Assembly: GCF_058153355.1 (NCBI RefSeq)
Contig: NZ_CM177019.1
Strand: one strand, 5' to 3'
DNA: 64,000 nt
In this document: positions 1,784 through 14,412 of the stretch, piece after piece
How the letters are laid out: the number at the start of each line of letters is the position of its first letter
Position numbering within the stretch: position 1 is the stretch's first letter
Position numbers and translations under genes: made by a program
The notes under the pieces: generated by a model
What the model was told of the DNA's origin: nothing
Seen by the model: the letters and a program-made list of their open reading frames with translations, nothing else
Databases searched by the model: none

Positions 1784-2509
1784 TTATTCCGTGATTAAAG
1801 TCCCTTCTTTTTCACCCATTACCACACGGCGCAGCGCACCCGGTTTGTTCATGTTGAAAACACGAATCGGTAATTTATGGTCACGAGCCAGCGTGAAGGC
1901 CGCCAGGTCCATGACTTTCAGCTCTTTTTCCAGCACTTCGCTGTAAGTCAGTTGCTCGTACATCGTTGCGGTTGGATCTTTCGCCGGATCAGCAGTAAAC
2001 ACGCCGTCAACTTTGGTTGCTTTCAGCACCACATCGGCTTCAATTTCGATACCACGCAGGCAAGCTGCAGAGTCGGTGGTAAAGAACGGGTTACCTGTAC
2101 CGGCGGAGAGGATCACCACACGATTGTTGCGCAACAGGCTAATCGCTTCTGCCCAGCTGTAGCTGTCGCACACGCCATTCAATGGAATAGCGGACATCAG
2201 ACGAGCGTTCACATAGGCGCGGTGCAGTGCATCACGCATTGCCAGGCCGTTCATTACGGTCGCCAGCATCCCCATGTGGTCGCCCACAACGCGGTTCATA
2301 CCCGCTTTCGCCAGACCAGCGCCACGGAACAGGTTACCCCCACCAATCACCACACCAACCTGAATACCCAGTTCAACCAGTTCTTTGATTTCCTGAGCCA
2401 TGCGATCCAGTATGCTTGCATCAATACCGAAGCCTTCCGTGCCCTGCAGAGCTTCGCCACTCAACTTAAGCAGAATGCGTTTATAGACGGGTTTTGCATT
2501 GGTAGCCAT
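1784..2509 (-). CDS. pyrH: UMP kinase
   Basis: 241-aa [24 protein letters not shown]..., amino-acid kinase family; synteny frr-pyrH-tsf. Confidence 0.97.
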
Positions 2510-2617
2510 GTTTCTTTCCTGAGACTGTCAACGATTGAAATGAATTAATACCGGCGACATTGTACGTCGCTTTTCAGCGCAGCCCCATAAGGGTTAGCTG
2601 AATTTACAAGATGGGCG

Positions 2618-2645
2618 CAAAAAGAAGCCGCCCTCAGGCGGCTCC
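2618..2645 (-). terminator. intrinsic terminator downstream of tsf
   Basis: On minus strand GC hairpin (agccgcc/ggcggct arms) followed by U-rich run, immediately after the tsf stop. Confidence 0.6.
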
Positions 2646-2655
2646 TTTTCGATAA

Positions 2656-3507
2656 TTAAGACTGCTTGGACATCGCAGCAACTTCTGCTGCAAAGTCAGT
2701 CTCAACTTTCTCGATGCCTTCACCTACTTCGAAGCGGATGAAGCCAGTCACTTCAGCGTTATGCTCTTTCAGCAGCTGACCAACAGTTTTGCTTGGTTCC
2801 ATAACGAACGGCTGACCGGTCAGAGAAACTTCGCCGGTGAATTTCTTCATGCGGCCTTCAACCATTTTCTCTGCGATTTCTTTCGGCTTACCAGACTGCA
2901 TCGCGATATCCAGCTGAACCTGGTATTCTTTCTCTACCACTTCAGCGGAAACGTCTTCCGGTTTGATGAATTCTGGTTTGCTTGCAGCAACGTGCATAGC
3001 GATGTGTTTAACCAGCTCTTCGTCAGCGCCTTTAGCAGCAACCAGAACGCCGATACGCGCACCGTGCTGATAAGAACCCAGAACGTCGCCTTCCAGCGCA
3101 GCAACGCGGCGAATGTTGATGTTTTCACCGATTTTCGCTACCAGCGCAACACGTTCTTCTTCGAACTGTGCTTTCAGAACTTCAACGTCAGTGATTTTGC
3201 CAGCAACAGCTGCGTCCAGAACTTTGTCTGCGAACGCCTGGAAACCAGCGTCTTTTGCAACGAAGTCAGTCTGGCAGTTAACTTCCAGAATGATGCCGTA
3301 GTTGCCGTCGATTTTGGTTTTGATCACGCCGTCAGCAGCAACGTTGCCTGCTTTTTTCGCTGCTTTGATAGCACCGGACTTACGCATGTTTTCGATTGCC
3401 AGCTCGATGTCGCCGTTAGCTTCAGTCAGTGCTTTTTTGCAATCCATCATGCCTGCGCCAGTACGCTCACGCAGCTCTTTTACCAGGGATGCGGTAATTT
3501 CAGCCAT
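2656..3507 (-). CDS. tsf: elongation factor Ts
   Basis: 283-aa [30 protein letters not shown]..., EF-Ts; synteny with rpsB. Confidence 0.97.
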
Positions 3508-3561: not shown

Positions 3562-3590
3562 GTGAAAAAGGGGGCCATATGCAGGCCCCC
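3562..3590 (-). terminator. rpsB-tsf intercistronic attenuator/terminator hairpin
   Basis: Inverted repeat gggggcc-atatgca-ggccccc followed on the minus strand by a T-run; positioned between rpsB stop and tsf start. Confidence 0.55.
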
Positions 3591-3639
3591 TAACCAAACG
3601 TGTACTACCTGGTCTATAAGGGCTCTCCCCCTTCATATT

Positions 3640-3745
3640 TCGCGCCGCAGATGCGTTGTCTTCGCTCGCTCATCCCGGTCACTTACTGATGTAAGCTCCC
3701 GGGAATTCTCGAGCTTGCCGCCTTTCTGCAACTCGAACTAATTTG
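3640..3745 (-). repeat. degenerate ERIC-like intergenic repeat in rpsB-tsf spacer
   Basis: About 85 percent identity over ~70 nt to the reverse complement of the ERIC copy at 45371-45440 (core cacttactgatgtaagctcc vs cacttacttatgtaagctcc). Confidence 0.55.
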
Positions 3746-3764: not shown

Positions 3765-4712
<948 letters not shown>

Positions 4713-10028: not shown

Positions 10029-11186
10029 CTACCGCTCTTCATCTAGTTGCAGCGCCACATACAGCAGCAACCTGTCATCAAAATTGCCCAAATCAAGCCC
10101 GGTCAGTTCCGATATACGATTAAGCCGATACTCAAGAGTATTACGATGAATAAACAACGCCTTTGACGTTGCCAGCGGTTGCACATTGTGGCGAAACCAC
10201 GCCGCCAGCGTTCGCCGCAGCAAGCCGTTATTGTCCATCGCTTTCAGCCGCGCCAGCGGTCGCGCCAGTTCGTTGGCCTGCCAGTCGCCACGCAAACTGT
10301 CGAGCAACACAGGCAACATCAAATCCTGATAAAAATAGCAGCGACTTTCGGGCATCCGCTGTTTACCCACCACCATCGTCGTTTTCGCCGTACGATAGGA
10401 TCGGGCAATACTGCCAGGACCGGTAAAATAGTTGCCCAGCGAAACGCGAAAACGCAGCTGGCCGTACTCTTTCATGCGGGTAATCAGTTGTTCAACTCGC
10501 TTACGATGATCTTCTGCATCCCAGCGCCCAAAAGAGTTCAACGCCGGTTTCAACACCACCATTTCGGTCAGCGAGACAATCGCCACCAGATTATTACGCT
10601 CGGGCGTAGTCAGCGCGTTTTGCAGTTGCTGTAACTCCGCCATTGCGCTATCCACGCCAAGTTGACCGCTATCGACCTCAACAATAGCCACCACTCGCGG
10701 TTGATTGAGATCGATCCCCAACCGTTGCGCCCATTCAGTGAGTGCGGGAGTATTCTCCTCCGCCTGAATCAGGTTCATCACCAACTCTTCCCGCAAACGG
10801 CTATCCTGCGCCAACAGATGCATCAACCGCGACTGTTCCAGCATCATTTCAGCCGTCATGCAGACCAGTTCGCCATATTTACGCAGATTCTCTGGTTCAC
10901 CAGTCAAGCCGATTACGCCGACAATTTCACCTTCCAGCCGTAATGGTAGATTAATCCCCTGCCGCACACCGTGCAGATGACGTGCCACCGCGTCATCGAT
11001 ATCGACGACTCGTCCCTGTGAAAGTACCAGCAATGCACCTTCGTGCAATTCACCAATACGCTCACGATCGCCGCTGCCGATAATACGCCCGCGGGCATCC
11101 ATTACGTTAATATTGGTATCAATGATGCGCATGGTGCGCGCCACGATATCCTGCGCCATTTTGGTATCAAGATGCCAGCCAGCCAT
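10029..11186 (-). CDS. cdaR: carbohydrate diacid regulator (sugar diacid utilization regulator)
   Basis: ORF track frame 10029..11204; native start taken at MAGWHLDTKMAQDIVARTMRIIDTNINVMD (385 aa), C-terminal HTH; start choice among in-frame Met codons is uncertain. Confidence 0.9.
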   Translation of the reverse strand: MAGWHLDTKMAQDIVARTMRIIDTNINVMDARGRIIGSGDRERIGELHEGALLVLSQGRVVDIDDAVARHLHGVRQGINLPLRLEGEIVGVIGLTGEPENLRKYGELVCMTAEMMLEQSRLMHLLAQDSRLREELVMNLIQAEENTPALTEWAQRLGIDLNQPRVVAIVEVDSGQLGVDSAMAELQQLQNALTTPERNNLVAIVSLTEMVVLKPALNSFGRWDAEDHRKRVEQLITRMKEYGQLRFRVSLGNYFTGPGSIARSYRTAKTTMVVGKQRMPESRCYFYQDLMLPVLLDSLRGDWQANELARPLARLKAMDNNGLLRRTLAAWFRHNVQPLATSKALFIHRNTLEYRLNRISELTGLDLGNFDDRLLLYVALQLDEER

Positions 11187-11304
11187 AAGTCCTCCGTTAT
11201 GCACGGCTTAGCATAAGGAAGTACGTAACGTACGGCATTGTGCAAATGCCCAAAGGATGAGGAAGATGTATGGAGTTGTGGTGAAGTTCACAGATTGTAA
11301 GGAG

Positions 11305-11340: not shown

Positions 11341-12765
11341 TTACTGCATTAACAGATAGATGGTGCTGTCGCCGCGCTGAATATTCAGTGCCAGCACAGA
11401 CGGTTTGCTGTCGAGAACTTTACGCAGTTCAGCGATGTTTTTCACTGCCTGCTGGTTCGCACCAATAATCACATCACCTTTCTTCAGGCCGATCTGCGCA
11501 GCCGGAGTGCCCGTTTTCACGTTGTTCACCACCACGCCCTGATCTTTGCCTTTGTTGCTCATCTCAGCGCCTTCAATGCCGTTGAAGATGGTGCTGGAAT
11601 CAACCTGATTCTGGCTGCTCTGCTGCAGTTCCAGGTTCACGTTAACCTGCTTCCCGTCGCGCAGTAAGCCCAGGGTCAGTTTGCTGCCTACCGGCATAGT
11701 GCCCACCTGAGCACGCAGTGCGGCAAAGCTGCTGATTGGCTTACCGTTCAGTGAGGTGATCACATCACCCGCTTTAATGCCCGCTTTCGCGGCGGAAGAG
11801 TTCGGCAGAACCTGGCTTACGAAAGCACCGCGCTGGGCGTCAACTTTCATCGCTTTCGCCAGATCGGAGTTCAGCTCAGTCCCCATAATACCCAGCTCAC
11901 CGCGTTTCACCTGGCCGTATTCCACCATCTGCGAGGTCAGGTTTTTCACCATGTTGCTCGGGATAGCAAAACCGATACCGATGTTTCCGCCGTCCGGTGC
12001 GAGGATCGCGGTGTTGATACCAATCAGTTCGCCGTTCAGGTTAACCAGCGCGCCACCAGAGTTACCCCGGTTGATCGCTGCATCGGTCTGGATGAAGTTT
12101 TCGTAGTTTTCAGCGTTCAGGCCGCTACGTCCCAGCGCAGAGACAATCCCGGAAGTTACTGTCTCGCCCAGGCCGAACGGGTTACCAATTGCTACGGTGT
12201 AATCACCCACGCGCAGTGCATCAGAATCCGCCATCTTAATTGCGGTCAGGTTTTTCGGATTCTGGATCTGGATCAGCGCGATATCAGAGCGCGGATCTTT
12301 GCCAACCATCTTCGCGTCGAACTTACGACCATCGCTCAGCTGGACTTTAATCACCGTCGCGTTATCAACAACGTGGTTGTTGGTGACGACATAGCCTTTA
12401 TCGGCATCAATGATGACGCCGGAACCCAGCGCCATGAATTTTTGTTGCTGGCCGCCGCCATTACCGCCCTGGCCCCCCTGGCAGAACGGAGAGCTCTGGA
12501 ACGGAGAACCTTCCTGGCAGAACGGAGAATCATCACCGAAGAACTGCTGGAAATTACGCGGCATACGCGGCGTATTAACGGTTGTGCTACCTTCTACGTT
12601 AATGCTGACCACTGAAGGCATCACCTTTTCGAGCATTGGTGCAAGGCTTGGTATCTGCTGGGCTGTCGTTGCTGAAGAAGTCTCAGCCGCCGTTGCAGAG
12701 AGCGGAGATAACGCCAAACCTAAACTCAGAGCCAGTGCACTCAGTGCTAATGTGGTTTTTTTCAT
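11341..12765 (-). CDS. degP: periplasmic serine endoprotease DegP (HtrA)
   Basis: 474-aa ORF MKKTTLALSALALSLGLALSPLSATAAETSS..., signal peptide, trypsin-like domain and two PDZ domains. Confidence 0.97.
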   Translation of the reverse strand: MKKTTLALSALALSLGLALSPLSATAAETSSATTAQQIPSLAPMLEKVMPSVVSINVEGSTTVNTPRMPRNFQQFFGDDSPFCQEGSPFQSSPFCQGGQGGNGGGQQQKFMALGSGVIIDADKGYVVTNNHVVDNATVIKVQLSDGRKFDAKMVGKDPRSDIALIQIQNPKNLTAIKMADSDALRVGDYTVAIGNPFGLGETVTSGIVSALGRSGLNAENYENFIQTDAAINRGNSGGALVNLNGELIGINTAILAPDGGNIGIGFAIPSNMVKNLTSQMVEYGQVKRGELGIMGTELNSDLAKAMKVDAQRGAFVSQVLPNSSAAKAGIKAGDVITSLNGKPISSFAALRAQVGTMPVGSKLTLGLLRDGKQVNVNLELQQSSQNQVDSSTIFNGIEGAEMSNKGKDQGVVVNNVKTGTPAAQIGLKKGDVIIGANQQAVKNIAELRKVLDSKPSVLALNIQRGDSTIYLLMQ

Positions 12766-12810
12766 GTATTTCAGTCTCGATTAACAGATAACGCAAAATT
12801 GCTGTGTTCT

Positions 12811-12838
12811 TCAGATTCGTTTTATAGCGCGAAGTTCC
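12811..12838 (-). promoter_or_regulatory. sigma-E (RpoE) dependent degP promoter
   Basis: On minus strand GGAACTT (-35, complement of 12832-12838), 16-nt spacer, TCTGA (-10, complement of 12811-12815), about 50 nt upstream of the degP ATG. Confidence 0.75.
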
Positions 12839-12854
12839 GAACTAAAGTTTCTGC

Positions 12855-12890
12855 AAAAAGTAAAAATTTATTGTCCGTCTTTACAAAAGC
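12855..12890 (-). promoter_or_regulatory. candidate CpxR binding region upstream of degP
   Basis: GTAAA pentamers (minus strand tgtaaagacggacaataaatttttac) directly upstream of the sigma-E -35; half-site spacing not canonical. Confidence 0.4.
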
Positions 12891-12894
12891 CTGG

Positions 12895-14412
12895 TTATTG
12901 TTCTACGGCCATCAGACGTCGGTATTCATCCCACGCATAGAGGTCGGTCATACCGCTGATATAATCCTGTAGCAGGCGGCAGCGGTAATAATATTCCCAT
13001 AGCGGAAACTCAGGAGAATCTGACGGTAATTTACTGACAGCCTCGACATAGGCCAGCCGATGGCGCGTCGAGAGTTTGTGGAATAAGCGCGATTCAATAG
13101 GGAAACGTTTCACCCGTTCTTTTTCTACCAATTCAGTAAAGTCTGATAACGACAGGCTTAATAAAGGGCGATAAATCTCTAATAATCCGCTAATGACCCG
13201 ATAGCCCTGCAATTCAAGCTGCTCGACATCTGGATGGCTAAACACATGTTTTACAGCGACATTTTTATATAGCTTTAGAAGATCGCTGCATTCGCTGGCA
13301 TCTTCCAATAATGCATGATTAAACGTTCCGGCGAAAATCGCAGGCAGATTATCAATAAATCGTTGTGCCGCGTAGGGTACCAGTTTATTTAGGGTGTTTA
13401 CCCGTAAATACATAAAAAACTGATCTTCCGTACTGCGGCTTAAACTATTTGAGCGTGATTTTTCCCAGGCATTTTCAACCACCAGCGAAAAGAGCGAACC
13501 TTTCTCATGCTGGCCCCACGCTTCGTGCAAATGATGATAAAGCTGCTCAACGCTGAATATTCTTTTCTCTACCGCATCTTCAAGATCTGCCACACAATAG
13601 GAGATGTCGTCGGCAGCTTCCATAATCCACGTTAATGGAAAACGACTGTAAAGCGCCAAATTAAGTTCTTTACGCAACCGGGCAATATAGGCTTCTTCAG
13701 AAAGATAATAACCCGGCTTTTTCATTAAATAGTGATGTGTCTCAGGCGTTTCACCACGCCACCACGCCGGACGAGTATATTTTAAAATACCGCCAACCTG
13801 TGCCCAGGTGAGATTCATCCGCATCAATGTATGCACCAGACGAATGCCTTGTGCATTCCCCTCAAAATGACATAAGTCCTGACGTATTTTGCGCCGCAGC
13901 TCGTTAAGCGGTTCTTCCCCTTCCCGTAAACGTAATGCCGCCACGCTGCAGCGATCGTCAGTCAGAGGCTGGCTTTCGGCATCAGCCGGAAACAAACGCT
14001 GGCGAAACCAGTCATTTATCGCCGCTTCACCAAAATGACCAAACGGCGGATTGCCGATATCGTGCATCAGGCATGACATCTCAACAATACTTTCAAAGGG
14101 GCCGGTCAGTTCATCCAGACCATAATCTTCCAGTAATTTAAGCTCTTTCAGACGGCTTAAAATTTCTTTGGCGATGTAGCGCCCCACCTGCTGGACTTCC
14201 ATTGAATGGGTTAGACGCGTGCGCACGGCGGCATTTCGCTCCAGCGGAAAAACCTGGGTCTTTTGTTGCAGACGACGAATTGCCGGAGAGTTGATAATAC
14301 GCCCACGATCGCTCTCAAAGATTCGCAGGATCTCATGTTCGGTTTTAACGCCCTGTGGTGAACGGTAACGACGATGCCAGTTTATTTTTTTTCGGAAATC
14401 AATCTGTGCCAT
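12895..14412 (-). CDS. dgt: deoxyguanosine triphosphate triphosphohydrolase
   Basis: 505-aa [58 protein letters not shown]..., HD-domain dGTPase. Confidence 0.96.

Follow-up and report, generated by a model that had tools for sequence, protein, structure and literature searches.

degP is among the founding members of the sigma-E and Cpx regulons, and the question raised by its upstream DNA in this E. coli chromosome is whether both inputs are intact and how far each can be read from the letters themselves. The window, which is the whole 64-kb stretch of DNA analysed, carries degP on the minus strand. An earlier note, made from the sequence without database searches, had placed an intact sigma-E (RpoE) promoter and GTAAA pentamers of the CpxR type between 12811 and 12890, and had concluded that envelope-stress control of degP is legible directly from sequence. 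The DNA in and next to 12811..12890 can be regarded with high confidence as the canonical E. coli degP regulatory region, with a sigma-E promoter, an upstream CpxR site and a leader thermometer, all of them intact. Every one of these degP control elements is already described, in E. coli K-12 or in Salmonella. The present analysis establishes which elements are there, how they are spaced, that they equal characterised alleles and how well they are conserved; sigma-E dependence, binding by CpxR and the function of the thermometer are known from published work, and the part given below to the alpha subunit and to the inverted pentamer is inferred.

The degP locus and its sigma-E promoter

In the open reading frame list, the minus-strand genes follow one another in the order dgt (12895..14412), degP (11341..12765) and cdaR (10029..11204). 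The dgt-degP intergenic region is 129 nt long and AT-rich. The product of degP was scored against the DegP equivalog model NF008189 of NCBIfam and reached 934.5 bits, the cut-off being 720. The genes and the promoter elements are as follows.

11341..12765, minus strand: degP (htrA) coding sequence, intact, 474 aa (open reading frame list; NCBIfam NF008189; RefSeq annotation of identical DNA)
12895..14412, minus strand: dgt (dGTPase) coding sequence (open reading frame list; NF003429, 894 bits)
12832..12838, minus strand: sigma-E -35 element GGAACTT, at -33..-27 (7/7 match to consensus; ortholog conservation)
12811..12815, minus strand: sigma-E -10 element TCTGA, at -10..-6 (motif match; ortholog conservation)
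12805, minus strand: predicted sigma-E start, an A, giving a 40-nt leader (modal geometry; position 1 of RF02700; homology to Salmonella)

A 301-nt query around the degP promoter was run against complete E. coli genomes and was matched in 5,424 of 5,426, with flanks annotated as dgt and degP every time; in strain 2017-02-2CC it was 100% identical. Among 5,422 complete E. coli genomes, 4,024 carry exactly the same 61-nt core (12790..12850). Three of about 5,420 E. coli matches to the dgt-degP intergenic region sit on plasmid-labelled records, which probably reflects a mislabelled replicon or a chromosomal segment carried by a large plasmid.

The motif GGAACTT-N16-TCTGA that had been reported on the minus strand was found at 12838..12811, upstream of the degP ATG at 12765. 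The -10 element begins 50 nt before the ATG, with 45 nt in between, which agrees with the distance of about 50 nt given earlier. The motif is the sole match in the 64-kb window even with up to one mismatch, for which shuffling gave an expectation of 0.18, and the exact 12-base motif has a chance expectation of 0.008 in 64 kb with both strands counted. Chance alone would produce the looser pattern GAACTT-N16-TCNNA 0.41 times per window, so the strength of the match comes from the full motif and its position, not from the loose consensus.

The match had been called excellent, and this is deserved by the -35 element (7/7) and by the spacer of the preferred 16 nt; the -10 element falls short of it, as TCTGA agrees with TCAAA at three of five positions (TC..A). 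The same TCTGA stands in the K-12 degP promoter. Compared with rpoH P3 and other sigma-E promoters, for which the consensus is GGAACTTTT-N-YGGTCAAAA, the degP promoter shares the perfect GGAACTT, the 16-nt spacer, the 5-nt discriminator and the start at A, and differs in having TCTGA where the consensus has TCAAA. The -10 of rpoH P3 also reads TCTGA.

Mapped sigma-E promoters carry the motifs GGAACTTTT and (T/C)GGTCAAAA, with a strongly preferred spacer of 16 nt, a discriminator of 5 or 6 nt, 26 or 27 nt from the -35 to +1, and a start at A or G (PMC1312014). The criteria applied here were a spacer of 15-19 nt and a start 5-6 nt past the -10 and 25-28 nt past the -35. If A12805 is the start, the degP promoter has a spacer of 16 nt, a discriminator of 5 nt and an A at +1, which lies 26 nt past the -35; this geometry equals the modal values of the mapped promoters (PMC1312014).

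The position of the start was checked against the Rfam family RF02700, whose model spans 46 nt (the 40-nt leader plus the first two codons), so that model position 1 corresponds to the start site. A12805 aligns with this position, which is the 'standard' Salmonella start. Salmonella enterica htrA (L051) shares the promoter-to-ATG geometry of the window: 45 nt separate the -10 and the ATG, and the leader is 40 nt long. The earlier note had named a mapped start incompatible with this -10 as evidence that would speak against the promoter; placed by homology, the mapped Salmonella start with the 40-nt leader fits TCTGA, and no such incompatibility was found.

In K-12 (DH5a), degP has an identical -35, -10, discriminator, leader, GTAAA and TTTAC, and the same gene order dgt-degP-cdaR. 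The K-12 degP promoter was part of a library of 60 promoters and was active at basal sigma-E levels (PMC3326320). A search of the literature for the degP promoter sequence as a string gave no match. Taken together, the motif, its geometry and its relatives support a sigma-E-dependent degP promoter in the window. RNA polymerase carrying sigma-E (RpoE) would bind GGAACTT (12838..12832) and TCTGA (12815..12811) across the 16-nt spacer, and transcription would begin at A12805 and produce the 40-nt leader.

For comparison across Enterobacterales, a collection with one genome per species was searched with a degenerate pattern of the DNA that encodes the DegP signal peptide. This gave 120 loci, all encoding DegP orthologs, from Escherichia, Salmonella, Citrobacter, Klebsiella, Enterobacter, Yersinia, Erwinia, Pantoea, Tatumella, Rouxiella and others, and 119 of the 120 had enough upstream DNA for the promoter comparison. 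The pattern [G/T]GAACT[T/A]-N16(17)-TCT[G/C/T][A/T] was present upstream of degP in 118 of 119 loci at the first pass and in 119 of 119 with the Cedecea locus (L033) included. This locus had been a candidate for a promoter-less exception, which was rejected on inspection, as GGAACTA-N17-TCTAT and a TGTAAAG block are present.

When 117 unique orthologous upstream regions were aligned with MAFFT without an anchor, conservation peaked at the -35, the -10, TGTAAAGA, CAATA, TTTTTAC and the Shine-Dalgarno GAGA. The 16 nt that connect the T-tract to the -35 were poorly conserved, as were the bases directly after the -10. Within the -35, GAACT is about 0.9 conserved, and the first position may be T in place of G and the last A in place of T; within the -10, the T, C, T and final A are at about 0.9 and the G at about 0.6, varying to C or T.

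These data bear on the possibility that the motif is a chance resemblance and that degP is transcribed by read-through from dgt. Read-through would be helped by the dgt/degP junction, since the scan of 12600..13200 found no terminator-like site between the two genes, and Salmonella has long htrA leaders that begin inside dgt; the expectation of 0.41 per window for the loose pattern also leaves room for coincidence. The exact motif, however, is expected only 0.008 times per window, its -35 and -10 are identical to those of the validated K-12 degP promoter, and it is kept at the same place in 119 of 119 species while neighbouring bases vary. The conservation data effectively refute chance resemblance with read-through, and we regard it as scarcely credible.

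The proximal CpxR site and the T-rich block

Two conserved elements lie between the end of dgt and the -35 of the sigma-E promoter.

12870..12884, minus strand: proximal CpxR site 'degP1', GTAAA-GACGG-ACAAT, centred at -72 (published site; conservation)
12855..12866, minus strand: T-rich block TTTTTACTTTTT, at -61..-50, containing an inverted TTTAC at 12864..12860 (conservation; putative function)

GTAAA pentamers had been reported upstream of the promoter, and two are indeed present in the interval; they lie in opposite orientations and make no tandem repeat. The gene strand carries one at 12884..12880; the other is on the opposite strand at 12860..12864, where the gene strand reads TTTAC. 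For AT-rich intergenic DNA of 129 bp, a count of two GTAAA is only marginally unusual (P about 0.04-0.08). The criterion for a tandem CpxR box was GTAAA-N5-GTAAA, the literature allowing N4-8, and with up to two mismatches no such box was found in the intergenic region. Across the window the same search gave 68 matches where 47 were expected, among them a distal site in dgt.

A CpxR box had also been expected at this place, and this was borne out, as the GTAAA at 12884 opens a published site. Table S1 of PMC9600279 has 41 published CpxR sites, two of which belong to degP, namely degP1 GTAAAGACGAACAAT (De Wulf 2002) and degP2 GTAAATTACCGTCAG. The degP1 site of the window has 14 of the 15 bases of GTAAAGACGAACAAT, the single change, at 12875 within the N5 gap, replacing A by G, and the box stands 10 nt downstream of the dgt stop codon. 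In E. coli, degP is induced about 27-32-fold by cpxA24 or by NlpE overexpression (PMC9600279, Table 1).

A CpxR log-odds matrix was built from the 41 published sites, and also with the degP sites left out. The score of degP1 was 8.5 bits (7.0 with the degP sites left out), known sites ranging from 2.5 to 19.7 with a median of 13.7, and it ranked 75-130 among 128,000 window positions, or about 1-2 such matches per kb. Because this score is at chance level, CpxR control is not legible from sequence alone. The earlier conclusion that envelope-stress control can be read from the sequence therefore holds for the sigma-E promoter and fails for the CpxR site, whose score is that of the background. 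The proximal CpxR site is supported by the literature and by deep conservation, not by its motif score. As a calibration, the locus offers a sigma-E promoter that is readable from sequence beside a CpxR site that is convincing only through literature and phylogenetic footprinting.

In the 117 unique orthologous sequences, the conservation of TGTAAAGA..CAATA..TTTTTACTTT is 90% or higher, and its spacing to the -35 is fixed. TTTTTAC(T)TT is likewise about 0.9 identical, and its distance to the -35 is essentially fixed. In the footprint of about 120 species, the inverted TTTAC with its T-tract is as constrained as GTAAA, which provides a small lead for work on the activation of ECF-sigma promoters by a response regulator.

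The window differs from K-12 at four single bases of the intergenic region (12830, 12829, 12875 and 12859), with no recognised contact base among them. Two of the four, 12830 and 12829, fall in the 5' portion of the spacer; there the window agrees with most E. coli genomes, and K-12 has the rarer allele. Of the other two, 12875 falls in the 5-nt gap of the CpxR site and 12859 directly follows TTTAC; the CpxR matrix score goes from 8.06 bits in K-12 to 8.50 bits in the window. The 50 nt that hold the CpxR block (12851..12900) have a single identical counterpart among 5,424 complete E. coli genomes, in strain 2017-02-2CC from Viet Nam; the rarity is due to G12875 and T12859. Both bases are the commonest state in other Enterobacterales genera, which have GACGGACAAT and TTTACT, and judged by this comparison G12875 and T12859 are not lesions. 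The word intact in the earlier note is a fair one, as the rare bases are common in other genera and the CpxR score is essentially unchanged.

The canonical CpxR boxes, of the form GTAAA-N5-GTAAA (cpxP, ppiA, psd, yccA), and degP1 share a perfect first GTAAA, a 5-nt gap and 10-bp phasing. At degP1, however, the second half-site is ACAAT (2/5), and an inverted TTTAC follows after 5 more nt; against the median of 13.7 bits for known CpxR sites, degP1 scores 7-8.5 bits. The resulting arrangement GTAAA-N5-ACAAT-N5-TTTAC has a 10-bp phasing, with its parts at -79..-75, -69..-65 and -59..-55 relative to A12805. Yersinia nurmii (L021) has GTAAAGACGGTAAACAAT, which is GTAAA-N4-GTAAA and the sole full second pentamer among the sequences inspected by eye.

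A centre at -72 is typical of upstream (class I-type) activators. Phosphorylated CpxR would bind the upstream block that starts with GTAAA-N5-ACAAT (12884..12870) and raise transcription. From -72 it would probably help the alpha subunit of RNA polymerase to dock on the T-rich DNA at -61..-50. The T-rich block is a candidate inverted CpxR half-site, a candidate UP-element or alpha-CTD docking site, or both. The C of TTTAC is conserved base-specifically, so that the inverted pentamer is possibly a CpxR contact itself. In sigma-E promoters, UP-like elements rich in A/T occur at about -48/-49 and -57/-58 (PMC1312014), and the T-rich stretch of degP falls in this zone.

A tentative extension of this, which we think unlikely to hold, is that CpxR recognises here a tripartite, 10-bp-phased GTAAA-N5-ACAAT-N5-TTTAC in place of the standard box, with an inverted third pentamer and a deliberately weak middle half-site that are both near-invariant in at least 119 Enterobacterales species. 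If true, CpxR would be arranged here in a non-canonical way, as a head-to-head assembly or as two dimers with the central half-site in common. Another form of the idea is an obligatory CpxR/alpha-CTD composite site specific to a sigma-E promoter.

The block 12855..12885 could instead be mainly an UP element, or the site of another protein, with GTAAA incidental to AT-rich DNA. The low and non-significant CpxR matrix score and the marginal P value for two GTAAA in the intergenic region would fit this, as would the T-tracts at -61..-50 when set beside the UP-like positions of sigma-E promoters. The conservation, however, goes beyond A/T richness and is base-specific at the G of GTAAA, the C of TTTAC and CAAT, and the block reaches -80, past a normal UP element. 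Moreover, degP1 is among the published CpxR sites and degP is strongly induced by Cpx (PMC9600279). We consider a site that is mainly an UP element very unlikely, and degP1 is read below as a CpxR site.

Possible further starts and the distal CpxR site

Salmonella htrA has three mapped starts, with leaders of 40 nt, 47 nt and 215/449 nt (PMC5602114). The transcript with the 40-nt leader was at first detected under stress only, and the start with the 47-nt leader is expressed without stress (PMC5602114). Given the starts of the 47-nt and 215/449-nt leaders, RNA polymerase with sigma-E is maybe not the sole form that acts at degP. Three features of the window are relevant here.

12821..12826, minus strand: TATAAA inside the sigma-E spacer, a candidate sigma-70-type -10 suggested by conservation of 0.7-0.9
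12988..12993, minus strand: TATTAT inside dgt, a speculative candidate -10 of a far-upstream degP start near 12980 (computed from the Salmonella 215-nt leader, PMC5602114)
13020..13034, minus strand: distal CpxR site 'degP2' GTAAATTACCGTCAG, inside dgt and beyond the interval of the earlier note (15/15 match, Table S1 of PMC9600279)

Conservation of the TATAAA at 12826..12821 is 0.7-0.9 across species, an unusually high level in spacer DNA. The hexamer may serve as the -10 for a second start near G12812, which would be homologous to the Salmonella start with the 47-nt leader. Such a promoter would open another explanation of the Cpx response, in which CpxR activates, solely or also, an overlapping sigma-70-type promoter (-10 TATAAA/TAAAAC, start near G12812), the sigma-E promoter being CpxR-independent. 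There are parallels for this: the 47-nt-leader start of Salmonella htrA is active without stress (PMC5602114), Salmonella (L051) has TAAAAT at the homologous position, and at psd, which is under dual sigma-E and CpxR control, CpxR acts on a separate promoter and not on the sigma-E one (PMC8138132). The conserved TATAAA in the spacer points the same way; the spacers of sigma-E promoters, however, are also weakly conserved in connection with the -10 (PMC1312014), and this could account for it. Scanning the degP strand for sigma-70 promoters gave no complete promoter, and an acceptable -35 is missing; the E. coli hexamers TAAAAC and TATAAA lack the final T, and the 47-nt start was mapped in Salmonella, not in E. 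coli. An overlapping sigma-70-type promoter as the target of CpxR is in our judgement rather unlikely, and activation of the sigma-E promoter from degP1 is the preferred reading.

The earlier note contained neither the distal CpxR site nor the leader RNA thermometer. With the matrix, degP2 scored 12.2-12.9 bits and ranked 6-8 in the window; its full form is conserved within Escherichia only, and this conservation is confounded by the coding constraint of dgt. The sequence GGGAATATTATTA, which contains TATTAT, is invariant in Escherichia, Salmonella and Citrobacter, synonymous sites included. The position that corresponds by homology to the start of the Salmonella 215-nt leader follows 7-8 nt after TATTAT, and relative to that start degP2 would be centred at about -47. 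Speculatively, degP2 may drive a separate Cpx-dependent promoter (TATTAT at 12993..12988, start near 12980) in Escherichia only.

E. coli 2017-19-1CC (L004, NZ_AP027854.1) has an IS1 at 2248..2945, between the dgt stop and the CpxR block. This IS1 ends 13 nt upstream of GTAAA, leaving the proximal block and the promoter intact and shifting degP2 by about 0.8 kb. The insertion is a natural test of whether the distal CpxR site matters.

The leader RNA thermometer

12760..12805, minus strand: fourU RNA thermometer, made of the 40-nt degP leader and the first two codons (Rfam RF02700)

The degP leader was scored against RF02700, the thermometer of the HtrA 5' UTR, and reached 77 bits (gathering threshold 52) over model positions 1-46 of 46. 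UUUU at 12798..12795 pairs with the Shine-Dalgarno GAGA at 12778..12775, with C12793 bulged, and the same helix is present in the minimum-energy fold. The consensus of RF02700 has an A-U pair at positions 7 and 32, where the window leader has an A·C mismatch.

The fold of the leader is weak, with a minimum free energy of -3 kcal/mol and a z-score of +0.9, no more stable than shuffles. Covariation among 87 unique orthologous leaders is also weak, 68% of the cells being canonical with few double changes. Membership of the family is therefore taken from the Rfam score; low stability is expected for a thermometer, but neither it nor the weak covariation counts as independent support. Function of the Salmonella element as a thermometer was established by SHAPE and reporter assays, with temperature-dependent translation (PMC5602114). 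In the window, the weak fourU hairpin would mask the ribosome-binding site at low temperature and open on heat.

Between the promoter and the ATG, structured leader insertions of 60-120 nt were seen in Yersinia (L014, L020, L082), Pluralibacter (L121) and Pantoea (L032). Their predicted folds have energies of -24 to -47 kcal/mol, and the sequence is partly common to the Yersinia species. These insertions may be small repeat elements placed between the sigma-E promoter and the thermometer. Elsewhere in the window, two matches to sRNA families at the Rfam gathering level were found on the minus strand, CssrA with 136.6 bits at 3570..3679 and t44 with 83.5 bits at 4518..4604.
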